A stretch of DNA of 64,000 nucleotides from an uncultured Bacilli bacterium (GTDB lineage Bacteria > Bacillota_I > Bacilli_A > RF39 > UBA660): positions 34,770-98,769 of the forward strand of contig CAJUNF010000001.1 in assembly GCA_910587775.1 (NCBI GenBank). Reading direction: 5' to 3'. The position numbers and the translations under genes were made by a program. Positions 14,788 to 58,300 of this stretch are shown piece by piece. Numbering within the stretch: position 1 is the stretch's first letter; every line of letters starts with the position of its first letter. The notes under the pieces were generated by a model. That model was not told the origin of the DNA. It was given only the letters and a program-made list of their open reading frames with translations, and did no database searches.

Positions 14788-14967
14788 AATCAATCTCCTT
14801 TCGCCATACCTAAATTTAGGCATAGTAATTTCATTTCTAATGTATTATATCATAGATTCTCTTGGTTGCAAGTGAAAAAACTACTATTTTAATTATATGT
14901 TGCATTAATTTTTTAAATACATTAAAAATGTTTTTTAAGCAAATTTATTTATTGTAAAGTTTTTTAC

Positions 14968-15477
14968 TTATTTTATATGTAATATATGCTTTATTTTTCC
15001 AGCAAAAAAAACTAAACTATCACTCTTTTTCATAGCGATTTGTTTACCAACTGCCTTTCCCCCAACTGTTAATGCTGAAATTAATGAAGTTACTAATACT
15101 GTGATCCATATCGCATTTGCATTTAATTTTAACGTAATATAAGCTGTTAACACTGCTCCCAGAGATCCACTTACAATTCCACAAATATCTCCTATTACAT
15201 CATTACAAACACTTGAAACAACATTTCCATTTCTTAATAAAGAAATAGATTCTTTTGCACCAGGTATTTTTTTGGCAGACATGGCATGAAATGTCGCTTC
15301 TTTACTTGTTAGTGCTGCAACTCCTATCATATCGAATAGAATTCCTATTAAAATAACTATAATCATAATCATTAATAGTATAAAAACATTCATATCACTA
15401 CAAAAGCTAGTTAAAGCACTAAAAATTGCTGCTAAGAAAAAAGATAAGAAAAAAACCTTTAATGGCCAAAATTTCAT
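14968..15477 (-). CDS. oapA: small four-TM membrane protein with a DxxxD motif; candidate OLE-associated protein A (OapA)
   Basis: 169 aa with about four hydrophobic helices. The motif NDVIGDICG (D-x-x-x-D) lies in a membrane segment. The RBS AAAAGGAG is 7 nt upstream. It is immediately downstream of a ~530-nt structured, higher-GC noncoding region that has its own promoter. Confidence 0.5.
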   Translation of the reverse strand: MKFWPLKVFFLSFFLAAIFSALTSFCSDMNVFILLMIMIIVILIGILFDMIGVAALTSKEATFHAMSAKKIPGAKESISLLRNGNVVSSVCNDVIGDICGIVSGSLGAVLTAYITLKLNANAIWITVLVTSLISALTVGGKAVGKQIAMKKSDSLVFFAGKIKHILHIK

Positions 15478-15499: not shown

Positions 15500-16028
15500 A
15501 CCATGAAAAAAGATTCTTTTTAAGAACCTTTTTAAGCTACAATGGTTTTTGTTGTGGTAAATTATAAATTAATTTTACGGCTTAGGTCGAGTTGAATTTC
15601 TCTACTTTCTACCTTTGGTTACCCGAGGGCGATTTCTCTTTCAAGAAAGCAACTAAGTGTTACCATCTTAATTACTCGATTACCACTGAGTCCGCACTTT
15701 AATCCTTATAATTATAACATTCTAGAGGTTTTCCCTGACACTCACTATCCAATAATTATTCGCTTTTGCAAATACGATTTTGATAACCATCTAATTTTAG
15801 ATTCATTCGTTATCTCCCACGCATTCACTCACGACATGCACTTTTTTTATTTCTTGCGGGATTTCAGGAGGTTCATTATATGCCATTATAACTTTCCTAA
15901 AATCTTAAATTATATAACCGCCCCAACTTGGGCAGAAGAAGCGAATTATATAAAGTGCTTTCATGCAATTAGTAGATTTTTAGCCCTACCTTCATATTGT
16001 GTGTGTGACTAGAATAATGCACCACATG
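15500..16028 (-). ncRNA. ole: large structured noncoding RNA candidate (OLE-like RNA), about 530 nt
   Basis: No ORF on either strand. GC is visibly higher than the surroundings. It has a consensus sigma-A promoter (TTGACA-17-TATAAT). It lies directly upstream of, and is co-oriented with, the DxxxD membrane protein. It shows no tmRNA features (no GGGG start, no CCA end), no RNase P P4 motif (GGAAAGUCC) and no T-box features. Confidence 0.4.
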
Positions 16029-16029
16029 G

Positions 16030-16064
16030 TTAAGGATTATACACTATTTTTGCGTATTTGTCAA
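16030..16064 (-). promoter_or_regulatory. consensus sigma-A promoter driving the noncoding region and oapA
   Basis: Minus-strand TTGACA (16064-16059), a 17-nt spacer, then TATAAT (16041-16036). Confidence 0.55.
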
Positions 16065-18702: not shown

Positions 18703-19212
18703 TCATGATAAATATTTATCTAAAACGTTCTTTACAAAAAACTGGTATTCTACATTATCTAAATCTGTTTCTTCTGCTTCTAAAAGACATAGAGGCGGAA
18801 ACATTACACACCACCAATTTTCTCCTAATCCACTTCCTAAAGTAATAACTAATGATTCATATTTTCCTGCATCATATGTAATTCCTTTATATTCTTTTTC
18901 AGGAAATTCATTCATTCCATAATTCATTTCAAAATCTACATGATAATTATTTACGACATTTTGAATTAACGGAAGAGAATCTTGAATTAATTTTTCTGCT
19001 TCTTCTTTTGAATTTGCGGTAGCCATTAAACGATTTAATTCTTTTTCTACTTCTTTTTTTATTTCCATTTTTAAAGATTGATCTTCTATTGAATTACTAT
19101 TTGCAATCACCCGAAATCTAATAGAGTCATCTGGAATTAAAATTTGGCTTTGTTTATTTGTTACACAAATAACTACTGTTATAAAAAATAATATTAATAT
19201 AATCTTTTTCAT
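18703..19212 (-). CDS. spoIIR: stage II sporulation protein R
   Basis: IRFRVIANSNSIEDQSLK...GENWWCVMFPPLC matches the SpoIIR signature IRLHVIANSD...NWWCVLFPPLC. The start is set at ATG 19212, which has an AGGTGA RBS. Confidence 0.8.
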   Translation of the reverse strand: MKKIILILFFITVVICVTNKQSQILIPDDSIRFRVIANSNSIEDQSLKMEIKKEVEKELNRLMATANSKEEAEKLIQDSLPLIQNVVNNYHVDFEMNYGMNEFPEKEYKGITYDAGKYESLVITLGSGLGENWWCVMFPPLCLLEAEETDLDNVEYQFFVKNVLDKYLS

Positions 19213-19244
19213 GATTTCACCTAAATTAATCATGAATAGTCTTT

Positions 19245-20861
19245 TTACTTTTTATTCAATTTATTAGTATTTTCATAAAATTCTACAATTTTTTTATCAT
19301 AATACATAACTTCTCCACTTGGTAAAAGTAAAATTCTTTCTATTCCCAAATTATCTACGAAAGCTGGATTATGACTAACTAATAACATGGATCCTTGATA
19401 ATTTTTTAAAAATTCTGCAATAATAACTTGTGTTTCAGGATCTAAATGGTTTGTTGGCTCATCTAATAATAATAAATTGGCACCTGAAAGAGTTAATTTC
19501 GCAAGAGCTAATCTACTCCTTTCACCAGGAGATAACACAGAAACTTTTTTATAGACATCATTATTTGAAAATAAGAAAGATCCCAAATGAGCTCTTAAAG
19601 CTCCTTCACTTAATCCATATTCTTTTAAATTTTCTAGTAAATTTTTATTTTGATCTAATGTCTCATGTTCTTGAGCATAATAACCGATTTTTGTTTTATC
19701 TGATAGTTTTATATTTCCTTGAAAATTTTCTAGTTGTTTTGAAATTAGTTTTAAAAGGGTCGTTTTCCCTGCACCGTTTTCTCCAACAATTAAAAATTTT
19801 TCTCCACGATAAATTTCAAAATTTATATTATCGTATAATAAATTATTAGTGTATCCAAAAGACAAGTCTTCAATTTTTAATGGTATAGTACTACCAATAT
19901 TATCTAATTTCATTTTAACTTTAACTAATTTATCTGCTGGTCGTAACTCAATTTTCTTTTCTAATAGTTTATTTAATGTTTTTTCACGAGATTCAGCCAT
20001 TCTTTTTCTTTTACCAGATGAGTTACTATATAAGTTAACAATACTTTTTAATTTAGCAATCTCTTTTTGTTCTTTTTGATATTGCCCTTCTAATTGCTTT
20101 TCTTTTTCTTCTTTTTTTCTTTTATAATCATCATAATTTCCAGAAATTAATTCCATTTTTTTTGATTTTTTATCAATCCATATAGTTTTATTTGTTACTT
20201 CATTTAAGAAAGATTGGTCATGAGAAATCACTAATACCATTCCAGGATAATTTTTTAAATAATTAACAATTTGTTCTTTTGTTTCTAAATCTAAATGATT
20301 GGTTGGTTCATCTAAAAGGAGAATTTCAGGCTTACTATATAGTAATTTAGCAAAAGCAATTTTAGATTTTTGTCCCCCTGAACATTCTTTTAGCTTTTGA
20401 TTCAAAAGATTATCTGGTATTTTTAACATTTCTATTAATCTTATTAAAATACTATCTGCTTCATAATAATCCCAATAATCTAATTCAGATTGCAAATATG
20501 AAATTCGTTTATTTATTTGCATATTATTTGGATCTTCTGCCATTTTTAAATATAATTCATTAATTTCTTTTTCTATTTTTAGGATTGGTCGACCACTTAA
20601 TAAATAATCAAATACAGTGATATCTAAATTTGGAATTTCATCTGTTATTACTTGTGGTAAATATGAGATTCGGTAATTTGGTTTTATTTTTATTTTTCCG
20701 TAATCTGGGGTTAATTCTTTTAATATTAATTTAAAAAAGGTACTTTTTCCAGCACCATTTACTCCTATTATCCCAATATGATCTTTATCATTTAATTCAA
20801 TGGATACATCATCATAAATAAGTTCATCATTGTATGAAAATGTTAAATTAGTTATGTTCAT
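19245..20861 (-). CDS. ABC-F family ATPase with two tandem ABC domains and no TM domain
   Basis: Two Walker A motifs (GVNGAGKST and GENGAGKTT) and two LSGGQ signature motifs, joined by a charged linker. Confidence 0.85.
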   Translation of the reverse strand: MNITNLTFSYNDELIYDDVSIELNDKDHIGIIGVNGAGKSTFFKLILKELTPDYGKIKIKPNYRISYLPQVITDEIPNLDITVFDYLLSGRPILKIEKEINELYLKMAEDPNNMQINKRISYLQSELDYWDYYEADSILIRLIEMLKIPDNLLNQKLKECSGGQKSKIAFAKLLYSKPEILLLDEPTNHLDLETKEQIVNYLKNYPGMVLVISHDQSFLNEVTNKTIWIDKKSKKMELISGNYDDYKRKKEEKEKQLEGQYQKEQKEIAKLKSIVNLYSNSSGKRKRMAESREKTLNKLLEKKIELRPADKLVKVKMKLDNIGSTIPLKIEDLSFGYTNNLLYDNINFEIYRGEKFLIVGENGAGKTTLLKLISKQLENFQGNIKLSDKTKIGYYAQEHETLDQNKNLLENLKEYGLSEGALRAHLGSFLFSNNDVYKKVSVLSPGERSRLALAKLTLSGANLLLLDEPTNHLDPETQVIIAEFLKNYQGSMLLVSHNPAFVDNLGIERILLLPSGEVMYYDKKIVEFYENTNKLNKK

Positions 20862-25840: not shown

Positions 25841-25875
25841 AAAAAAACACATACGTTGATGTGCTTATTTTTTTA
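25841..25875. terminator. bidirectional terminator between the convergent PBP and parB-like genes
   Basis: An A7 run, then CACAT (25848-52), loop ACGTTG, then ATGTG (25859-63), then a T-run. Confidence 0.45.
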
Positions 25876-27091
25876 TTTTAATATTCATTTGATAATTATC
25901 ACTTAAATCTAGTTCTTCTATCTCAACTACAAAACCTTGATCATTCATTTGATTTATTAAATTTCTTACAGTGTTAATTGCAGTTTTTAAATCAAGTCCT
26001 TTTTCTTCCTCTAATTTTTGTTCATATGAGGGATCTAGTTTCATAATAGAAGAAACAGGGTCAATAATCATTTCCTCTTCTAATGGTTCTTTTATTTCTT
26101 CAATTGTATTTGTTTTATCATTTATATTATTATTTCCAAAGAAAAATGGTGTTTCTTCTGTTTTGTCTTCTTTTAAAGATGATTCTTCTAATCCATCATC
26201 CAAAACTTCCATATCATCACTCAAAGGATTTGTATTTTCTAATTTTGAAGATGAAAATAAACCATCCATCATATTCATATTAGCTGCTTCATCTTCTAAA
26301 AAGTTAAAAAATTTATTTGGAACAGCAGTTGGTTGTTCTTCTATTGTATTTGTTTTTGATTCTTCCATAGGTTTTAACATACTTTCTACATCATGTAATT
26401 CACGAACTGGATTGATATCAGTTGCATTATTTACAATTGATTCTAAGTTTGGAGTTAAATTTACAAGTGGAATATCTTCTCCAGCAGTTTCTTCTTTTAA
26501 TTTTTTTAATTCCATATCCAATTGACGTACGGTCATTCTTTTTTCAATTATTTTTTTCAACCATTTTTTTTGTTCATCTTTGGATAAAGTTAATAAAGCT
26601 CTTGCATGTCTTTCTGAAATCTTTTCATTTAATAGAGCATTTTGGACATCTTCATCAAGATTTAAAAGTCTTAATTTATTTGCTACTGTTGATTGTGAAA
26701 CGCCCATTTTCTCTGCTAATTGTTCTTGCGTTAGATATCCTCTATCTAATAAGCTTTTATAAGATTTTGCTTCTTCTATTGCAGTTAGATTTCTTCTTTG
26801 AATATTTTCTACTAATGCTACTTCTGCGCTTTTATTATCATCTATATTTGAGATGATAGCTGGAACTTTTTGTAATCCTGCCATTGTTGCGGCTTTATAT
26901 CGTCTTTCTCCTGCTATGATTTCAAATTTATCTCCCAAACGTCTTAAAACTAAAGGCTGTATAATTCCATGTTGCTTAATTGATTCTGATAATTCTGTTA
27001 ATCCGCCCTCATCAAATGCTAATCTTGGTTGAAATCGATTTGGAATAATATCCTCAATCGGAATTAGCTGAATATCCTTCTCCATATTCAC
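25865..27091 (-). CDS. parB: ParB/Spo0J-family (or Noc-like) protein with a long acidic low-complexity C-terminal region
   Basis: The N-terminal ParB domain carries GERRYKAA (box II). The HTH reads LTQEQLAEKMGVSQSTVANKLRLL. The roughly 200-aa C-terminus is D/E/N-rich rather than a canonical dimerisation domain. It lies directly downstream of rsmG, and no ParA/Soj gene is adjacent. Confidence 0.75.
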   Translation of the reverse strand: MNMEKDIQLIPIEDIIPNRFQPRLAFDEGGLTELSESIKQHGIIQPLVLRRLGDKFEIIAGERRYKAATMAGLQKVPAIISNIDDNKSAEVALVENIQRRNLTAIEEAKSYKSLLDRGYLTQEQLAEKMGVSQSTVANKLRLLNLDEDVQNALLNEKISERHARALLTLSKDEQKKWLKKIIEKRMTVRQLDMELKKLKEETAGEDIPLVNLTPNLESIVNNATDINPVRELHDVESMLKPMEESKTNTIEEQPTAVPNKFFNFLEDEAANMNMMDGLFSSSKLENTNPLSDDMEVLDDGLEESSLKEDKTEETPFFFGNNNINDKTNTIEEIKEPLEEEMIIDPVSSIMKLDPSYEQKLEEEKGLDLKTAINTVRNLINQMNDQGFVVEIEELDLSDNYQMNIKIKK

Positions 27092-33104: not shown

Positions 33105-33144
33105 ATGATCAATTCCTTTTATAAAAAAAGCCACATATCGTGGT

Positions 33145-33267
33145 TTATTTACATAATTGTTTGCGTCCTTTTCTTCTTCTTCTTTTTAAAATATTTGTTT
33201 CTTTACGTGCGAAGAAGCCATGTTTTTTCGCTTTTTTGCGATTATTTGGTTGATAAGTTCTTTTCAT
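33145..33267 (-). CDS. rpmH: 50S ribosomal protein L34 (40 aa). It is not in the ORF track.
   Basis: Minus-strand ATG at 33267 with an AAAGGAGG RBS. It encodes [40 protein letters not shown]. The L34 N-terminal signature is MKRTYQP..RK..K.HGF. TAA stop at 33145. Confidence 0.75.
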
Positions 33268-33340
33268 ATTTGTACCTCCTTTTTCCTTAAAGCTCCCTTA
33301 TTATAAACTTACCACTATTAAAAAGTCAAGAAATAACGGG

Positions 33341-33446
33341 TTATACACAAATTCACATTGATGTTTATAAGATTACACATTATCAACGTTGATAATTATT
33401 CTATGTTGATAATTTCTAAAATCAAAGTTGTGGATAATGTTGATAA
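33341..33446. promoter_or_regulatory. oriC DnaA-box cluster upstream of dnaA
   Basis: One perfect TGTGGATAA at 33429-33437. One-mismatch boxes are TTATACACA (33341), TGTTGATAA (33404) and TGTTGATAA (33438). Weaker matches are TTATCAACG (33380) and GTTGATAAT (33388). Confidence 0.6.
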
Positions 33447-33582
33447 CTATATTTTTATCTGTTAGAATATGAAACCAAGACTGTTTATAAATTGTTAATT
33501 ATGTGTGAATTGTTCTTTCGTACTTGTTTTTAAAATCACAACTGAGTTAAAATGAAGTTGATAAAACGTGAGGGATTGTGGG

Positions 33583-34971
33583 GTGAAGTGGTTGAAAACA
33601 GAAACCGAAACATTATGGCAAAATTTCTTAGATCTTATTTATAAAGAAATCAACGCAGCTTCATTCCATGCGTGGTTTCACGATTTACTTTTACTTAGTA
33701 TAGATCGTTATCAACATAGTATTAAAATTCAGGTACCAATGGAAATTCATCGTAGAATTCTTGGTGAAAACTACTATTCACTCATTGAAGAAACTTTTTT
33801 AAAACTAACTGGTATTACTTTTGATATTGAATTTTTATTAGAAGAAGAAAAAGAAACAATTGTGGATAACTTTCAAAAAGAAATTATTTCTGATGAAAAT
33901 ATTCCTAATGTTATTGCAAAAGATTGGGAATCTAACTTAATTCCAGAACTTAATTTTGATAATTATGTAGTTGGAGATTCTAATCGACTCGCTAAAGTTG
34001 CTGGTATGGCTGTTGCTGAAGCACCTGGCAAAATACATAATCCTTTGTTTATTTACGGAAAAAGTGGACTTGGTAAAACTCATTTAATGCATGCTATTGG
34101 TAATTATATTGTTGAGCATTCTAATAAAAAAGTATTGTATACAACTAGTGATATGTTTATGAATGATTATACTGGAATTGCGAACTTAGAAAATAAAAAT
34201 AATACCGTTGAATACGCGAATAATTTTAAAAATAAATATCGTAATGTTGATGTTTTAATTATTGATGATATTCAATATTTAGTTGGGGCAGAGAAAACAC
34301 AACAAGAATTCTTTCATACATTTAATGCCTTACAACAAGCAAATAAACAGATTATTATAAGTTCTGACCGATCGCCAGATGATTTAAAATTATTAGAAGA
34401 ACGTCTTCGAAGCAGGTTTATGTGGGGATTGCCTGTGGATATCTATCCTCCAGATTTTGAACTTCGTTGTAAAATTATAAAGCAAAAAGTCAAAAATACC
34501 AGTATTGCTAATAAACTTGATGAAACTGTTGTTGAATTTATCGCAAATAGTTGCCAAAATGATGTAAGGTTTTTGGAAGGAACTATAAATCGTTTAATGG
34601 CTTATACTGCTATGGTCGTTCCTGATCATATTGATCTAGAATTTGCTAATGAAGCTTTAAAGGACTTTATTAATAAAAATATTTATTCAGAAAATAGTAT
34701 TGAGGGGATTCAGAATGCAGTAGCAGAGTATTATAATATTACGATTGCTGATCTTAAAGGAAAGAAAAAGAGTGCTAATATTGCTTATCCAAGGCAAATA
34801 GGAATGTATCTTTGTAGAATGCTAACTGATGAAACTTTTCCTAGAATTGGCTTAGAATTTGGTGGAAGAGACCATTCTACTGTAATTCATGCTTGTGATA
34901 AAATTGAAAAGGATTTAAAAACGAATCCGACACTATCAAATACATTAAAAGAAATTAAAAATAAAATATGA
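33583..34971 (+). CDS. dnaA: chromosomal replication initiator protein DnaA
   Basis: The AAA+ Walker A is GKSGLGKTHL. The C-terminal domain IV is ...IGLEFGGRDHSTV. Start candidates are GTG 33568 (longest), GTG 33583 (GAGGGA RBS) and TTG 33592. Confidence 0.95.
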   Translation: MKWLKTETETLWQNFLDLIYKEINAASFHAWFHDLLLLSIDRYQHSIKIQVPMEIHRRILGENYYSLIEETFLKLTGITFDIEFLLEEEKETIVDNFQKEIISDENIPNVIAKDWESNLIPELNFDNYVVGDSNRLAKVAGMAVAEAPGKIHNPLFIYGKSGLGKTHLMHAIGNYIVEHSNKKVLYTTSDMFMNDYTGIANLENKNNTVEYANNFKNKYRNVDVLIIDDIQYLVGAEKTQQEFFHTFNALQQANKQIIISSDRSPDDLKLLEERLRSRFMWGLPVDIYPPDFELRCKIIKQKVKNTSIANKLDETVVEFIANSCQNDVRFLEGTINRLMAYTAMVVPDHIDLEFANEALKDFINKNIYSENSIEGIQNAVAEYYNITIADLKGKKKSANIAYPRQIGMYLCRMLTDETFPRIGLEFGGRDHSTVIHACDKIEKDLKTNPTLSNTLKEIKNKI

Positions 34972-34972
34972 T

Positions 34973-35100
34973 TGTGGATAAATATTTAAAAACTGGATAG
35001 GAATTCACATCAGAATTTTAAAATCTGCTTAGGAAATATCAATGATTTGAAACCTATGCACATTATAAACTGTATTATTATAATTAATATTAAATTAATA
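34973..35100. promoter_or_regulatory. dnaA-dnaN intergenic oriC half: a perfect DnaA box plus an AT-rich candidate unwinding element
   Basis: TGTGGATAA at 34973-34981 lies 1 nt after the dnaA stop. A near-pure A/T run at about 35065-35100 precedes dnaN. Confidence 0.45.
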
Positions 35101-35120
35101 AAAAGAAAGAAGGAAACAAA

Positions 35121-36324: not shown

Positions 36325-36783
36325 ATGGAAAATTATGAGATTAATACAGAAACACTTGCTTTAATTTCTTTAAAAAATAAAACAGAGGTATTTGAAGAAA
36401 ATGATCATTTTTTTATTGATAAAGTAGCAAATGAAATTATGGAATCAAGTTGTGAGTATTTTGGAAGTTCATTATCAGGAAGACAGAAGGGAACTGAGCG
36501 GTTAATTGGGGTAAGTTATAAAGCTCCAGTTATAGTGGAAGAGACAGAAGAAATGATTTTTTTTCCGACTGAATCTCCTAGAAATGACAGTTGTTCTTGG
36601 ATTTCACTTCAAAAGATTAATAAATATTTTCGATGTGGAGAAAAGATGGTTATTGAATTTAAGAATGGAAGTAAAGTAGTTTTAGATTTATCATATGGAA
36701 AGCTAGATAATCAAGTTTTACGTGCAACTCGATTGGAGTCTGTTTTAAGAGGGCGAAAAAGCAATAAAAATAGTTTTAAATAA
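36325..36783 (+). CDS. comK: ComK-family protein (competence transcription factor fold)
   Basis: CEYFGSSLSGRQKGT aligns with B. subtilis ComK CRFFGSSYAGRKAGT. KAPVIVEETEEMIFFPTESPRNDSCSWIS aligns with KPPIMVDPSNQIFLFPTLSSTRPQCGWIS. FKNGSKVVLDLSYGKLDNQVLRATRL aligns with FSNGKTMELPISYNSFENQVYRTAWL. Confidence 0.7.
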   Translation: MENYEINTETLALISLKNKTEVFEENDHFFIDKVANEIMESSCEYFGSSLSGRQKGTERLIGVSYKAPVIVEETEEMIFFPTESPRNDSCSWISLQKINKYFRCGEKMVIEFKNGSKVVLDLSYGKLDNQVLRATRLESVLRGRKSNKNSFK

Positions 36784-39894: not shown

Positions 39895-42360
39895 ATGGAT
39901 AGAATAATTGAAAATAATATTGTTAATGAAGTAAAAGATTCTTTTTTAGATTATGCTATGAGTGTTATTACAGCTCGTGCTTTACCAGATTTGCGTGATG
40001 GATTAAAACCTGTTCATCGTCGTATTTTGTATTCGATGTATGAATCTAGTTATACTCCTGATAAACCTCATCGTAAAAGTGCAAGAATTGTTGGAGATGT
40101 AATGGGAAAATATCATCCTCATGGAGATTCTTCTATTTATGATGCAATGGTTCGTATGGCACAACCTTTTAGTTTCCGTCATATGCTTGTAGATGGACAT
40201 GGTAATTTTGGTAATATGGATGGCGATGGTGCCGCTGCAATGCGTTATACAGAGGCAAGACTGTCAAAGTTATCTCTTGAGATGATAAGAGATATTAATA
40301 AAGAAACAGTAAATTTTAGTCCGAATTTTGATGAAACAGAGAAAGAACCTGAAATTTTGCCTAGTAGATTCCCTAATATTTTAGTAAATGGAACTATGGG
40401 AATTGCAGTTGGAATGGCTACTAATATACCTCCACACAACTTGGGTGAAGTAATTGATGGTTGTGTAGCTTATATTGATAATCATGAAATAACAACTGAT
40501 GAATTAATGCAATTTATTAAAGGTCCAGATTTTCCGACTGGAGCGACTATTTTAGGTAATAGTGGTATTAAAAAAGCTTATGAAACAGGTCGTGGATCAA
40601 TCACAATTCGTGGAAAAGTTGAAATTGAGGAAAATAATGGCAGATCTCGTATTATTGTTACAGAATTGCCATATCAAGTGAATAAAGCTGAATTTCAGTC
40701 ACGTATTGGAGAACTTGTTAGAGATAAAATTATTGATGGTATTAGCGAATTACACGAGGAATCTAATCTAGAAAATCCAGTGCGAGTTGTTATTTATTTA
40801 AAAAGAGATGCAAATGCAAATGTTGTTTTGAATAATTTGTATAAGCATACACAGTTACAAACAACTTTTGGTATTAATTTCTTGATGTTAGATCAGCAAT
40901 CTCCTAAAATTTTACCATTAAAAGATATTATTTCTAAATACATTGATTATCAAAAAGAGATAATTATTCGAAGAACACAATATGATTTGAGAAAAGCACA
41001 AGAACGTGTACACATTTTAGAAGGCTTAAAGATTGCTTTAGATCATTTAGATGAAGTAATTAAGATAATTAGAGAATCTAAAACAGATGTGATCGCAAAA
41101 GAACAATTAATGCAACGTTTTGGTTTAGATGATATTCAAGCTAATGCTATTCTTGAAATGAAATTGCGTCGTTTAACTGGATTAGAACGAGAAAAGATAG
41201 AAAATGAGCTATCGGAATTATTAAAGACTATAGAAGAATTACAAGCAATATTAGCAAGTGAAGAGAAAGTTTTAGCTATAATAAAAACTGAACTTTTAGA
41301 AATAAAAAATAAATATGCTGATGAGCGACGTACAAATATAGATATGACTGCAATTGAATATATTGAGGATGAATCTTTAATTCCAGTAGAAAATATAATG
41401 ATTGCTTTGACAAATAAGGGTTATATTAAACGTACTACTGTAGACACCTTTAAATCTCAAAATAGAGGTGGAGTTGGTGTTAAAGGTATGGGTACAAACG
41501 AAGAAGATTTTGTAGATCATTTAATCAACTTATCCACACACGATTACGCTTTATTTTTTACAAATAAAGGTAAAGTATATAGATTAAAAGGATATGAGAT
41601 TCCTGAATTTAACCGTCAATCAAAAGGATTACCAATTATTAATTTGTTACAAATTGAAAAAGATGAGATGATTAATAGCGTAATAAGTATTGGCAATGAA
41701 CACGATTATAAATATTTATTATTTGTAACTAAAAATGGAATTGTTAAGAAGACTGCTATTAATGAGTTTGATAATATTCGAACATCTGGTAAAATATGCA
41801 TTAATTTAAGAGATAATGATGAGTTAATAGCAGTGAAAAAAACTACAGGAAATAATTTGATATTATTGGGCTCTAGTGCTGGTAGAATGGTTAAATTTGA
41901 TGAAAATGAGCTTAGAGTAATGGGAAGAACAGCAACAGGTGTACGAGGTATTAATTTAACTGAAGCATTCTGTGTAGGTGCAGAAATTGCAACTGATGAA
42001 GATAAAGTATTAATAGTAACTGAAAAAGGATACGGAAAACAAACGAATGTTTGCGAATATAGAGGCACTAAACGAGGAAGTAAAGGAGTAAAAGCTTTAA
42101 ATGTAACTGAAAAGAATGGTAATATATCAGCATTTAAAGTAGTTAGAGAAAATCAAGATGTAATAATCATTACTGATACAGGTATGTTAATTAGAATGCC
42201 TTTAGATCAAGTTTCAACTTTAGGTCGTGTTACCCAAGGTATTCGTTTGATTCATTTGAAAGATAATCAAAAAGTATCAACTATAAGCTTGGTGGATCAT
42301 GAAGAAAAAACAACTTGTGAAGATTCATCTATACCAGAAAACTTTTTAGAAGAAGAATAA
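39895..42360 (+). CDS. gyrA: DNA gyrase subunit A
   Basis: An active-site Tyr region ([10 protein letters not shown]), a QRDR and C-terminal beta-pinwheel repeats. 821 aa. Confidence 0.95.
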
Positions 42361-42372
42361 TAATTTTAAGAA

Positions 42373-42388
42373 TGTTCCACGTGGAACA
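42373..42388. promoter_or_regulatory. parS site 1
   Basis: TGTTCCACGTGGAACA is a perfect 16-bp palindrome. It is one symmetric position off the Firmicutes parS consensus TGTTNCACGTGAAACA. Confidence 0.75.
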
Positions 42389-42572
42389 TTCTTTTATGTT
42401 GATAACTTCTTTTTTGCGATAAGAGAAGAATTGATTATAAATTTTTATTTTTCTTAAACAATCATATAGTTTAATATTTAATTTAATATAATATATCCTT
42501 AACTATTAGAATTTTTTTGGTAAAATACATTATTTTTAACCTTTTTTATCTGTAAATTTAGTAAATCTATTA

Positions 42573-42588
42573 TGTTCCACGTGGAACG
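42573..42588. promoter_or_regulatory. parS site 2
   Basis: TGTTCCACGTGGAACG matches site 1 at 15 of 16 positions. Confidence 0.7.
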
Positions 42589-42663
42589 TGTGCATAACTT
42601 GTATTTAATAAACATCAAATAAGTTAGATATTGGATACAAAATAAAACTATTGTTGATAAATA

Positions 42664-42679
42664 TGTTTCACGTGGAACA
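42664..42679. promoter_or_regulatory. parS site 3
   Basis: TGTTTCACGTGGAACA matches the consensus TGTTTCACGTGAAACA at 15 of 16 positions. Confidence 0.75.
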
Positions 42680-42690
42680 TATAAGAAAAG

Positions 42691-42719
42691 TTGATAAATA
42701 AATCTTTATTTGCTAAAAT
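42691..42719 (+). promoter_or_regulatory. sigma-A promoter for the SRP RNA
   Basis: TTGATA (42691-96), a 17-nt spacer, then TAAAAT (42714-19). The TSS is predicted at about 42726. Confidence 0.5.
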
Positions 42720-42723
42720 GTAC

Positions 42724-42803
42724 TTGTGCAACAAATATATTGCAAACTGGTCAGGATCGGAAGATAGCAGCCAATGTAATCCCTGTTTGTGTGCACTTTT
42801 TTT
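42724..42803 (+). ncRNA. ffs: signal recognition particle RNA, short 4.5S-like form
   Basis: GGUCAGGAUCGGAAGAUAGCAGCC matches the universally conserved domain IV motif GUCAGGUCCGGAAGGAAGCAGC. This comprises a GGAA tetraloop and CAGG/AGCAG loops. The 5' end (GUGCAACAAA) pairs with the 3' end (UUUGUGUGCAC) to close a single hairpin, followed by a U7 terminator tract. It lies in the tadA-dnaX neighbourhood, where ffs sits in Bacillus. Confidence 0.6.
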
Positions 42804-42817
42804 ATTGAGGTGTAACT

Positions 42818-43231
42818 ATGAATAAATACTTTGAAATTTGCTTAAAATTATCAAAAAAAGCTTCCAAAATAGGAGAAGTACCTATTGGAGCAGTAATCGT
42901 TTTAGATGGTAAAATTATAGCAAAAGCATATAATTTAAGGGAAAAAAAGCATGATATAACAGCACATGCTGAGATTTTGGCTATAAAAAAAGCTTCTAAA
43001 TTATTAAAACGCTGGAATTTGAAAGAATGTGAATTATATGTCTCTTTGGAACCTTGTTCAATGTGTGCAAGTGTAATACAACAAGCTAGAATTTCAAATG
43101 TTTATTATTTGTGTGAAAAATTGGATTATAAAAAAGAATACAATAAAACAAAGTATTTTAATAATAAGGACCAAAAATTATTAATAGAATATCAGGGTAT
43201 TTTATCTAGATTTTTTTCAAGTAAAAGATAG
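42818..43231 (+). CDS. tadA: tRNA-specific adenosine deaminase
   Basis: HAEILAIKKAS (HAE) and LEPCSMCA (PCxxC) zinc-deaminase motifs. 137 aa. Confidence 0.85.
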   Translation: MNKYFEICLKLSKKASKIGEVPIGAVIVLDGKIIAKAYNLREKKHDITAHAEILAIKKASKLLKRWNLKECELYVSLEPCSMCASVIQQARISNVYYLCEKLDYKKEYNKTKYFNNKDQKLLIEYQGILSRFFSSKR

Positions 43232-44949: not shown

Positions 44950-45249
44950 ATGAATATGCAAAATATTATGGCGCAAGCTCAAAAAATGCAAAGAGACTTA
45001 CAAAAAAAGAAAGAAGAATTAAATCAAGAATTATTTCCCGGGAAATCTGATTGGGTAGAAGTTGTGTTTAATGGTAAAAAAGAATTAATTTCTGTTAAAA
45101 TTTTATTTGATGGAGATATTACTTCAGAAGATAAAGAAATGTTAGAGGATATGTTTTCTTTAGCGGTAAAAGATTCTATGAATAAAATTGACAAAGCATT
45201 TCAAGATAAAATGGGATCTTATGCAAGTATGCTTGATGGTTTAATGTAA
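44950..45249 (+). CDS. ybaB: nucleoid-associated protein YbaB/EbfC
   Basis: 99 aa beginning MNMQNIMAQAQKMQRDLQKK. It is in the conserved dnaX-ybaB-recR arrangement. Confidence 0.85.
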   Translation: MNMQNIMAQAQKMQRDLQKKKEELNQELFPGKSDWVEVVFNGKKELISVKILFDGDITSEDKEMLEDMFSLAVKDSMNKIDKAFQDKMGSYASMLDGLM

Positions 45250-47717: not shown

Positions 47718-48411
47718 TTTATATGATTATAAAGATATGAAAATTTATCAATATGAAGAAGCTTTTAAATTTTCTTTAGATTCTATTTTGTTAGCAGAAT
47801 TAGTTCAAATACATAAAAATGATAAAAATATTTTAGATTTATGTACAGGTAATGCGGTTGTTCCTTTAATTTTATCTACTAAAACTGATTTACCTATTAC
47901 TGGAATCGAATATCAAACTCTTATTTGGGATCTTGCAAATTTATCAATAAATTATAATCATAAGGAGAAACAAATAATCTGTATCAATGATGATATTTTA
48001 AATCTTGATAAATATTTCCCGGGAAATAATTTTGATATAATAACTTGTAATCCTCCATATTTTAAATATCACAGTAAAGACTTCTTAAATCAAGAAGAAT
48101 TGAAACAAATTGCACGTCATGAGGTTAAAGTAACTTTAGAGAATGTAATACAAATTGCATCCATGAATATAAAAAATAAAGGTAACTTTTATATGGTTCA
48201 TATTTGTGAAAGATTACAAGAAATTTTAATTTTGTTAGAAAAGTATCAGTTTCGTATGAAAGATCTATATTTGGTATATCCTAATAGAAAGAGTAAATCG
48301 TTTTTAGTCTTGTTTCGTGCCATAAAGGGCGGTAATATAGGTATGAAAGTTCATGAACCAATTTTTTTAGATGAGCTAAATACTTATCAAAATATGTTTA
48401 AAGGAGAATAG
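47698..48411 (+). CDS. tRNA (adenine37-N6)-methyltransferase-like protein (YabB/TrmN6 family)
   Basis: SAM-binding DLCTGNAVVP and the catalytic NPPY (ITCNPPYF). The start is uncertain between 47668, 47698 and 47737. Confidence 0.65.
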   Translation: MKKILNDLYDYKDMKIYQYEEAFKFSLDSILLAELVQIHKNDKNILDLCTGNAVVPLILSTKTDLPITGIEYQTLIWDLANLSINYNHKEKQIICINDDILNLDKYFPGNNFDIITCNPPYFKYHSKDFLNQEELKQIARHEVKVTLENVIQIASMNIKNKGNFYMVHICERLQEILILLEKYQFRMKDLYLVYPNRKSKSFLVLFRAIKGGNIGMKVHEPIFLDELNTYQNMFKGE

Positions 48412-53777: not shown

Positions 53778-55298
53778 ATGAAAGAAAAATTTAGTATATT
53801 TACAGCAATTGCTTATACTTCTGCTAAGCCACATATTGGTAATACTTATGAAATCGTTCTTGCAGATGCAATTGCACGATTTAAACGTTTGAAAGGTTAT
53901 GATGTTTATTTTCAAACAGGTACAGATGAACATGGAGAAAAAATAGCTCAGAAAGCTTTAGAAAATGGCTTAACTCCTCAAGAATATTGTGATAATATTT
54001 CCCAGGAAATACAAAATATTTGGGATATAATGAATACTTCTTATGATCGTTTTGTAAGAACTACAGATAAGAATCATGAACGTGTAGTTGCGCGTATTTT
54101 TGAAAAGTTGCATGAGCAAGGAGATATTTATCTTGGAAAGTATGAAGGATTGTACTGTGTTCCTTGTGAATCTTTTTTTACTGAAAGTCAGTTGGTAGAA
54201 GGAAAATGTCCTGACTGTGGTCGTGAAGTAGTAGAAAAAAGTGAAGAGGCGTACTTCTTTAAAATGTCAAAGTATCAAAAACAATTAGAAGATTATTTAG
54301 AAGCACATAAAGACTTCATTCAGCCAGAGTCTCGTAAGAATGAGATGGTAAATAATTTTATTAAACCTGGTTTACAAGATTTATGTGTCTCTCGAACTTC
54401 TTTTGATTGGGGTATTAAAGTTCCAATGGATCCAAAACATGTTGTATATGTATGGTTAGATGCGTTAACCAATTATATTACTAATATAGGTTATGATGTA
54501 GATAGCCAAACCGATGAATTTAATAAAATCTGGCCGGCTGATTTGCATTTAGTTGGAAAGGATATTATTCGTTTTCATATGATTTATTGGCCAATTTTCT
54601 TAATGGCTTTAGATTTACCACTACCAAAGAAAGTTTTTGGACATCCTTGGCTTTTAATGGCAAATGATAAAATGAGTAAGAGTAAAGGTAATGTAATGTA
54701 TGCTGATGATTTAGTATCAATTTATGGAGTAGATGCTATTCGTTATTATGTTTTACATGAAATTCCGTTTGGTCATGATGGTAATATTACCGATGAATTA
54801 ATTGTTGAGCGAATTAACTCTGATTTAGCTAATGTATTAGGTAATTTAGTAAATCGAACTATTTCTATGGCTCAAAAGTATTTTGATGGGGAAGTAAGTA
54901 ATCAAAATGTATTAGATCAATTTGATTCAGAACTGGTAGCTTCTATTAATTCTCTTGATGAACGAGTTACTAAAAGAATGGATGAATTAGAAATTGGTAA
55001 AGCAATTGATGAAATTTTTGAACTTCTTCGTCGTAGCAATAAGTATATTGATGAAACAATGCCTTGGAGTTTAGCAAAAGATGAAAATAAGCGTGCTAGA
55101 TTAGAGACTGTTTTATATCATTTACTTGAAGCAATTAGAGTTTCGGCAATATATTTAAGTTCTTTTTTGCCAGATACTAGTAAAGAAATATTACGACAAA
55201 TTAATCAAGAAAATAATAGTTTTTCTTTTGAAAGTACTTTAAAATATCAAGTTTTAGAACCTAAAATACTGTTTCAAAGAATAGAAAACAAAGGTTAG
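53778..55298 (+). CDS. metG: methionine--tRNA ligase (short form)
   Basis: The class I motifs PHIGN (HIGH-type) and KMSKSKGN (KMSKS). A zinc knuckle CPDCG. 506 aa, without the C-terminal tRNA-binding appendix. Confidence 0.9.
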   Translation: MKEKFSIFTAIAYTSAKPHIGNTYEIVLADAIARFKRLKGYDVYFQTGTDEHGEKIAQKALENGLTPQEYCDNISQEIQNIWDIMNTSYDRFVRTTDKNHERVVARIFEKLHEQGDIYLGKYEGLYCVPCESFFTESQLVEGKCPDCGREVVEKSEEAYFFKMSKYQKQLEDYLEAHKDFIQPESRKNEMVNNFIKPGLQDLCVSRTSFDWGIKVPMDPKHVVYVWLDALTNYITNIGYDVDSQTDEFNKIWPADLHLVGKDIIRFHMIYWPIFLMALDLPLPKKVFGHPWLLMANDKMSKSKGNVMYADDLVSIYGVDAIRYYVLHEIPFGHDGNITDELIVERINSDLANVLGNLVNRTISMAQKYFDGEVSNQNVLDQFDSELVASINSLDERVTKRMDELEIGKAIDEIFELLRRSNKYIDETMPWSLAKDENKRARLETVLYHLLEAIRVSAIYLSSFLPDTSKEILRQINQENNSFSFESTLKYQVLEPKILFQRIENKG

Positions 55299-55310: not shown

Positions 55311-55544
55311 ATGAAATTAAATTTAAGAAAAATAGCAATTGGAGCTACAATAACAGGAATTTCTTTTGTAGCAATTTCTAAAATGTTTCACGTGAAACGT
55401 CCAAAAGTAGGAAGTCATGATTATTCATCTAAAAATAGTTCTACATCTAATATGGCATTTTTAAGTGAAGAGCACTTTGTAGTTGAAAAGCCGAAAACAA
55501 GAATATTAAAAAAAACTTCTTTAGATGAAGAAAATGGTGAGTAA
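55311..55544 (+). CDS. small hypothetical protein with an N-terminal hydrophobic segment; it contains a parS site
   Basis: 77-aa ORF in the metG-tatD gap. Coding status is uncertain. Confidence 0.35.
   Translation: MKLNLRKIAIGATITGISFVAISKMFHVKRPKVGSHDYSSKNSSTSNMAFLSEEHFVVEKPKTRILKKTSLDEENGE
55384..55399. promoter_or_regulatory. parS site 4, inside the small ORF
   Basis: TGTTTCACGTGAAACG matches the perfect parS palindrome TGTTTCACGTGAAACA at 15 of 16 positions. Confidence 0.7.
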
Positions 55545-58268: not shown

Positions 58269-58300
58269 ATACCATTAAAAAGAATGGGTGGTTTTGAGTT

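Follow-up and report, generated by a model that had tools for sequence, protein, structure and literature searches.

Which protein reads the four near-identical 16-bp palindromes that lie to the right of the replication origin in this chromosome, three of them packed into the short gap between gyrA and the gene for the small SRP RNA, and are they indeed the parS centromere sites that they resemble? The DNA that we analysed, called the window below, is a stretch of 64,000 nucleotides from an uncultured member of the Bacilli. It is about 27% GC and also encodes spoIIR, spoVT and the gene for the RNA polymerase delta subunit. In our opinion the four palindromes are almost certainly genuine parS sites, judged by their letters, their position and their conservation. 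We further consider it very likely that they are chromosomal centromere sites read by a parS-specific ParB, which would be encoded outside the window.

The sites and their genomic setting

A preliminary description of this DNA had named four 16-mers as parS sites, and each of them is present exactly where it was placed. Site 1 (42373-42388, TGTTCCACGTGGAACA) is a perfect palindrome located 12 nt past the gyrA stop codon. Site 2 (42573-42588, TGTTCCACGTGGAACG) and site 3 (42664-42679, TGTTTCACGTGGAACA) follow at spacings of 200 and 91 bp, and site 3 ends 11 nt 5' of the -35 hexamer of the SRP RNA gene, ffs. Site 4 (55384-55399, TGTTTCACGTGAAACG) is found within a 77-aa open reading frame, where it encodes M-F-H-V-K-R; none of the four is assigned to a strand. 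Sites 1 to 3 are thus all inside the 355-bp gap that runs from the gyrA stop (42360) to the start of ffs (42715). The gene 5' of the cluster, gyrA, occupies 39895-42360 on the forward strand (NCBIfam NF004043, 1184 bits), and ffs occupies 42715-42811 on the same strand (Rfam RF00169, 54.6 bits, the gathering score being 40).

A search of the whole window with the pattern TGTTNCACGTGNAACA, allowing at most one mismatch, returned four matches, which are sites 1 to 4 and nothing else, with 0, 1, 0 and 1 mismatches respectively; the chance expectation, from 100 dinucleotide-preserving shuffles of the window, is 0.00. Matches with two mismatches are absent from the window. Eight parS-like 16-mers with three mismatches are scattered over it (at 14864, 29764, 30232, 36714, 38465, 39713, 47396 and 62410), and the shuffles give 1.98 +/- 1.21 matches in total at up to three mismatches. 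These eight could be weak sites, half sites or plain chance.

The parS sequence of B. subtilis is TGTTNCACGTGAAACA, present there at 10 sites of which 8 are origin-proximal, and the 16-mer of the window is the universal parS sequence (PMC7022226). A fit of 15 to 16 out of 16 positions had been claimed for all four sites. This figure stands if the symmetric consensus is used, in which position 12 is also N (scores of 16, 15, 16 and 15), but it does not stand for site 2 against the strict consensus TGTTNCACGTGAAACA, where the score is 14 of 16. Position 2 is G and position 7 is A in all four sites; hence they are of the parS class and not of the NBS class (TATTTCCCGGGAAATA), in each half-site of which these positions are A and C respectively. 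A reading of the four palindromes as NBS was therefore rejected.

The GC skew changes its sign between 32 and 34 kb of the window. The dnaA gene is located at 33568-34971, and DnaA boxes are clustered on both sides of it, at 33341-33490 and at 34973. Together, the skew switch, dnaA and the boxes place the origin region at about 33.1-35.1 kb (33135-35120, no strand), so that the parS sites are 9 kb and 22 kb away from it. This bears out the earlier statement that all of them are within 22 kb of oriC. A second origin between gyrA and ffs was considered as well and rejected, because the sign change of the skew is at dnaA and not at 42 kb. In the same neighbourhood, between dnaN and recF, there is a ComK-family gene (36325-36783, forward strand, E = 4.9e-40) in a slot that in many Firmicutes is held by the small S4-domain gene yaaA; the relative L163 has this gene in the same place.

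Conservation in related species

For comparison we used 80 loci that a scan with DnaA had recovered from species-representative genomes of uncultured gut Bacilli (DnaA 67-95% identical). Titles such as 'Mycoplasma sp. CAG:776', Ca. Caccenecus and Ca. Ventrenecus occur among them, and rabbit, mouse, chicken and human are the sources of many MAGs in this set. Wherever a locus spans the end of gyrA, which is so in 54 related species, parS is present at that point (55 of 55 with the window), in 2 to 14 copies per species with a median of 4. In 1.35 Mb of origin-proximal DNA there are 269 sites with at most one mismatch, and 266 of these are at the gyrA end, that is, from 20 nt before to 2.2 kb after the gyrA stop. 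The control DNA, 1.1 Mb from 80 metG-centred loci of a metagenome scan with MetG (mostly unrelated Firmicutes of 36-59% GC, plus a few low-GC relatives), has no parS at all. The preliminary description had conceded that the same palindrome at high frequency throughout the genome would point to a generic repeat or to the site of another regulator. What is observed is an empty control, a single locus for nearly all sites of the relatives, and one window site, site 4, outside the cluster.

In the three closest genomes the conserved islands of the gyrA-ffs spacer are the parS cores, the hairpin formed around site 1 and the ffs promoter only, the remainder being unalignable. An orthologue of site 1, as the first site of the cluster, is found in relatives. 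Close relatives also have a middle site like site 2, at a position that does not align and is different in each, and site 3 is conserved together with its flank in L012 and L002. Species differ in copy number as a result of tandem duplication. The extreme is L045, where 13.5 tandem units of 40 bp (18987-19527, 95% matches) have one perfect parS each and the total between gyrA and ffs is 14 parS; L029 and L072 have 11 parS each, in longer repeat units.

The fourth site is located, as claimed before, in a small ORF between metG and tatD (55311-55544, forward strand). The predicted 77-aa product has a hydrophobic N-terminal stretch, and neither Pfam nor NCBIfam gave a match to it. Its homologues form two clusters only, in which the N-terminal 30 residues, KMFHVKR included, are conserved and the rest is not. 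In the syntenic ORF of L166-L169, which are four assembled contigs of one related species, the 16-mer is identical and spans the same codons (M-F-H-V-K-R), and the protein there is only 47% identical. In the more distant low-GC metG loci L081-L084 site 4 is absent.

Taken together, the position of the cluster, the confinement of the copies, the divergence of the spacer and the identity of site 4 are strong evidence that it is the 16-mer itself that is under selection. The identification of the palindromes as parS, which had been proposed from the window alone, is supported by the match to the universal parS sequence, by proximity to the origin and by the absence of further copies both in the window and in the 1.1 Mb of control DNA; the conserved gyrA-ffs cluster and the base-for-base conservation of site 4 in a relative now back it too.

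Which protein reads the sites

The window encodes one protein of the ParB family, of 408 aa (25865-27091, reverse strand; Pfam ParB_N and HTH_ParB), directly downstream of rsmG. Its best NCBIfam model is nucleoid_noc (TIGR04285), which is matched in its N-terminal and C-terminal parts with 289 bits, below the cutoff of 315, and the best solved structures are those of Noc (7NG0, 7NFU and 7OL9). The specificity residues are Q-K-N-R; the same four residues are Q-K-K-R in B. subtilis Noc, with an alignment that agrees with the structure match, and R-H-T-G in B. subtilis Spo0J. With residues of the NBS-specific set (Q173, K179/K184, R201) and with rsmG as its neighbour, this is a Noc-type protein, predicted to read NBS and not parS.

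Its N-terminus has no amphipathic membrane-targeting helix. About 16 residues precede the motif PNRFQPR, and an in-frame stop lies 6 codons upstream of the start; the protein is on record with a GTG start (P0001), and the ATG-start form is not on record. A short N-terminus is common to nearly all of 270 homologues, in which PNRFQPR starts at residue 14-21 with four exceptions. Further downstream there is an acidic low-complexity linker of about 150 residues, followed by a Noc-like C-terminal domain, and the lengths of the 270 homologues range from 227 to 740 aa. Two database searches with the Noc-type protein as query supplied these homologues, as the best 120 of 8000 in one and the best 150 representatives of 87,814 in the other. 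Among the 270 listed, the fourth specificity position is R in all, the first is Q in all but one, and Q-K-x-R is found in 265. There is no Spo0J-type protein among the best 120 of 8000 and the best 150 of 87,814, a range that such a protein of this lineage could not reach with a Noc-type query.

Three NBS are present in the window, again with no strand assigned. One (45032-45047, TATTTCCCGGGAAATC) is within ybaB; the second (48013-48028, TATTTCCCGGGAAATA) is a perfect match and has an orthologous site in L166; the third (53996-54011, TATTTCCCAGGAAATA) is within metG and has orthologous sites in L166 and L167. They are consistent with a working Noc, which would have targets of its own here. In relatives, some NBS are located upstream of dnaA, at a distance of about 2.5 kb, and others within recF/gyrB; downstream of ffs they occur in pairs spaced by 90 bp. 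In L027, L028, L031, L071 and L072 there is an NBS 24-37 bp from a parS within the array. When palindromes of both kinds were counted in the 1.35 Mb, 219 were pure parS, 72 were pure NBS and none was a hybrid combination of half-sites. Two pure classes would fit two separate readers, yet this is weak evidence, since two mutations separate a hybrid from either class.

Where, then, is the parS-type ParB? A second ParB-family ORF was not found in the window, either by phmmer with Spo0J, Noc and Soj or by hmmsearch with a ParB profile at E<=10, among ORFs of at least 80 aa; phmmer likewise gave no Soj/ParA among these ORFs. In the 80 dnaA and 80 metG loci phmmer returned Noc-type genes or nothing, with no second ParB or ParA. 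Neither was present in L161, which extends 4.8 kb past the left edge of the window, in L163, with 20 kb around noc on a relative's 387-kb contig, or in L166. In 26 relatives the sole ParB-family gene at up to 10 kb from dnaA is again of the Noc type with Q-K-N-R, and a ParB with R173 and G201 occurs neither in the window nor in the 80 dnaA loci, the 80 metG loci, L161, L163 and L166. The most economical view is that the reader of parS is presumably the product of an orphan parB elsewhere in the genome. A precedent exists in S. aureus, which has noc beside the origin and parB elsewhere.

A different answer would be that canonical Spo0J and Soj were lost, and that the helix-less Noc-type protein reads both NBS and parS, binds the centromere and loads SMC. 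We regard this as quite unlikely. In its favour, neither the 64 kb that surround oriC nor any related locus has a ParB-family gene other than the Noc-type one, and after noc, where soj and spo0J usually follow, both are missing. The N-terminal extension of about 25 residues that B. subtilis Noc has is absent in all or nearly all relatives, and position 184 is N, not K, throughout the lineage. Dual specificity can be obtained in the laboratory, as the 82 variants from a deep mutational scan illustrate (PMC7383237), and the Mycoplasmataceae, which are relatives of this lineage, are reported to be without par genes (PMC7022226).

On the other hand, according to Jalal et al. (PMC7383237), NBS-specific binding needs no more than Q173, R201 and one permissive lysine, R173 does not vary among parS-specific variants (nor do R173 and G201 among ParB orthologues), and at position 201 dual-specificity variants have mostly T or S, not R. 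The variant QKNR itself is not in the supplementary tables of PMC7383237. The two sharply distinct classes of sites, with no hybrids, also speak against a single reader, and the DNA in which no second ParB was seen covers about 5% or less of a genome. We therefore stay with a separate, parS-specific ParB.

Terminator and promoter contexts

Two of the intergenic sites have a second aspect, and it has to be weighed whether that aspect could be the main one. Site 1 is the centre of a perfect palindrome of 26 nt (AAGAA, parS 1, TTCTT) which is followed by TTTATGTT (candidate gyrA terminator, 42368-42401, forward strand). The hairpin begins 7 nt past the gyrA stop and has a stem of 11 pairs and a loop of 4 nt; its RNA fold has -18.3 kcal/mol with z = -3.9, and it is the one terminator-like site in 42200-42900. 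In about 20 related species the arms beyond the 16-mer vary and yet remain complementary, with a T-run after them. The arm pairs include AAGAA/TTCTT, AATAGAA/TTCTATT, TAGCAA/TTGCTA and TACGAA/TTCGTA, and the T-runs are found in the clade of the window. A hairpin that contains GC, a U-run and compensatory changes in the arms are the marks of an intrinsic (Rho-independent) terminator. Most likely, site 1 doubles as the predicted intrinsic terminator of gyrA.

Site 3 is beside the promoter of ffs (42691-42719, forward strand), which consists of the -35 hexamer TTGATA, a spacer of 17 nt and the TG-extended -10 hexamer TAAAAT. Fifty-three species share the architecture TTGnnn, 17 nt, TAnnnT, 6 nt, GTGCAAC. 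The last parS is 1-14 nt 5' of the -35 hexamer in 43 of these 53, where uniform placement within each spacer would give 6.5, and none of 200,000 simulations approached 43; part of this signal is inherited proximity, since the species share ancestry and insertions have few targets in so short a gap. In the window the gap of 11 nt puts site 3 at about -62 to -47. The preliminary description had remarked that the sites are upstream of the ffs promoter and that expression of SRP RNA could be influenced by spreading of ParB. The result goes further as to position, the last parS being beside the -35 hexamer in most species. On a connection of parS with SRP RNA, a search of the literature turned up nothing relevant. 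The sequence GTTGATAAATA is present on both sides of parS 3 (42639-42700, repeat family D2), and its 3' copy includes the -35 hexamer of ffs, a pair that suggests local duplication of a unit made of parS and the promoter edge.

One could argue from these contexts that the palindromes are mainly transcription signals, site 1 a terminator and site 3 the operator of an ffs regulator, and that their likeness to parS is incidental or secondary. The extended arms of site 1 with their T-run and compensatory changes, and the last site at no more than 14 nt from the -35 hexamer in so many species, are what such a reading would predict. However, the conserved core is the exact universal 16-bp parS in all 269 copies, and most copies (site 2, site 4 and the internal members of the arrays) have neither a T-run nor an adjoining promoter. 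Neither terminators nor a single operator would call for arrays of up to 14 copies, and site 4 is within coding sequence. The terminator and promoter contexts are in keeping with parS sites that were put to a second use, and in our opinion a primarily transcriptional role is very improbable. To the idea that the palindromes belong to a short dispersed repeat of the REP or MITE kind, which no protein would bind specifically, we give practically no credence: there are several copies in AT-rich intergenic DNA and tandem duplication does change their number, but the copies share the 16-bp core alone, the flanks in the window being mostly unrelated and 63-73% identical at best, and they are at one locus near oriC in every species and nowhere in the control DNA.

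DnaA-box-like motifs beside parS

Each of the three intergenic sites has a DnaA-box-like 9-mer within 0-8 nt, in all cases on the reverse strand. The first (42397-42405, TTATCAACA) is 8 nt past parS 1; the second (42589-42597, TTATGCACA, which fits TTATNCACA) abuts parS 2 directly; the third (42652-42660, TTATCAACA) is 3 nt ahead of parS 3. The cluster upstream of dnaA uses the same variants of the 9-mer. The one after site 1 is kept in L012, and L002 has a perfect TTATCCACA there; in the place of the one before site 3 there is TTATTCACA in L012 and TTATGCACA in L002. A strict TTATNCACA box is within 10 nt of parS at 52 of the 269 sites, and the relaxed motif at 114, both counts being inflated by tandem copies. 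Of the 45-nt flanks of parS, 12.5% contain the strict box; for 45-mers drawn at random from these loci the figure is about 2%. The preferred offset from the edge of parS is 1-3 nt, the association is not universal, and part of the motifs overlap -35-like TTGATA sequences. The motifs beside parS may be a DnaA-binding cluster at the centromere.

It is tempting to combine these observations into something larger. Either the lineage is devoid of Spo0J and Soj and a Noc-type clamp serves both parS and NBS, or the gyrA-ffs array is an integrated origin-proximal control module, or both are true. If it is such a module, ParB beside the -35 hexamer of ffs may tune the synthesis of SRP RNA, and DnaA on the flanking boxes may couple initiation of replication to segregation, in analogy to the Caulobacter centromere. 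We consider this combined proposal unlikely, and prefer to treat the array as parS sites for a ParB encoded elsewhere.

How the sites would work

With a parS-specific ParB, the following course of events can be proposed. A ParB of the Spo0J type (R173 and G201, in Caulobacter numbering) would bind each 16-mer as a dimer and, with CTP, would close into a clamp that slides onto the flanking DNA. Three loading sites in about 300 bp and a fourth one 13 kb off would then create a dense zone of ParB 9-22 kb to the right of oriC. Since no ParA is visible, the main job of this zone would probably be the loading of SMC-ScpAB and the organisation and segregation of the origin, as in S. pneumoniae. Sites 1 and 3 would have a second function each. 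Site 1 would be the stem of the gyrA terminator, and ParB at site 3 could touch or block RNA polymerase, or else the polymerase could be a barrier to sliding clamps. ParB binding, clamp loading, recruitment of SMC and any effect on ffs or gyrA are what we infer from the presence and placement of the sites.

Relation to known systems

The closest likeness is to the parS/Spo0J-SMC system of B. subtilis, with the same consensus TGTTNCACGTGNAACA, proximity to the origin and a host that also belongs to the Firmicutes/Bacilli; the gene order dnaA-dnaN-recF-gyrB-gyrA ... dnaX-ybaB-recR ... metG-tatD-ksgA is shared as well. The arrangement is different. The 10 sites of B. subtilis are dispersed and mostly intragenic, whereas here three sites are in one intergenic region of 355 bp, in agreement with the greater density that the preliminary description had noted. 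Further, B. subtilis has noc, soj and spo0J together beside oriC, and here soj and spo0J are not beside noc.

S. pneumoniae has 4 parS sites and an orphan parB, and modulation of the development of competence by its ParB is described in work cited in the same paper (PMC7022226). In common with the window are the small number of origin-proximal parS, the apparent lack of ParA, SMC loading as the likely main role, and a parS beside a promoter which may affect transcription. In the window, unlike in S. pneumoniae, a Noc-type gene is beside the origin and no parS-type ParB is in view. The pneumococcal parB is immediately beside the origin, and S. pneumoniae is not known to have a Noc.

Several parS in a short origin-proximal stretch are also seen in Caulobacter, Corynebacterium glutamicum (10 sites), Myxococcus and Mycobacterium. 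The clustered centromeres of these four are at or beside the parAB operon, whereas the cluster of the window is between gyrA and ffs, away from par genes. DnaA is reported to bind in the centromere region of Caulobacter, which the DnaA-box-like motifs flanking parS in the window would parallel. With the Noc-NBS system the window shares a Noc-type protein with Q-K-N-R and three NBS, parS and NBS differing at two positions per half-site, but the N-terminal amphipathic helix with which B. subtilis Noc binds the membrane has no counterpart here. In plasmid F, sopC consists of 43-bp repeats bound by the ParB-family protein SopB. The 13.5 tandem 40-bp units of L045, with one parS each, are reminiscent of it, but that array is chromosomal and made of the universal chromosomal parS, and the window has no tandem array.

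Origin-proximal parS are textbook knowledge, so the basic finding adds just another lineage to those with an ordinary set of such sites. What is distinct is the address between gyrA and ffs, the reuse of a site as a terminator, the site at the side of a promoter and the absence of a visible parB. In addition, there is now a comparative set from a single uncultured order of gut Bacilli, 54 species with 2-14 sites each, in which the array has a fixed address (gyrA-ffs) and parB is away from its usual place. Such a small genome allows one to ask whether, at a defined promoter, ParB clamps and RNA polymerase influence each other, and whether a Noc-type protein that lacks the membrane helix could stand in for ParB. 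The identity of the reader protein is the point that could raise interest further.

Other features of the window

Two further features are recorded here for completeness. An OLE (ornate large extremophilic) RNA gene is located at 15538-16041 on the reverse strand (241.6 bits, a match to the full model), and the 169-aa ORF downstream of it (14968-15477) has no Pfam match. At the right end of the window, an ORF of at least 1901 codons (58298-64000, forward strand) continues past the edge; it has an N-terminal segment that looks like a signal peptide or a transmembrane segment, and it is probably the gene of a giant surface protein.
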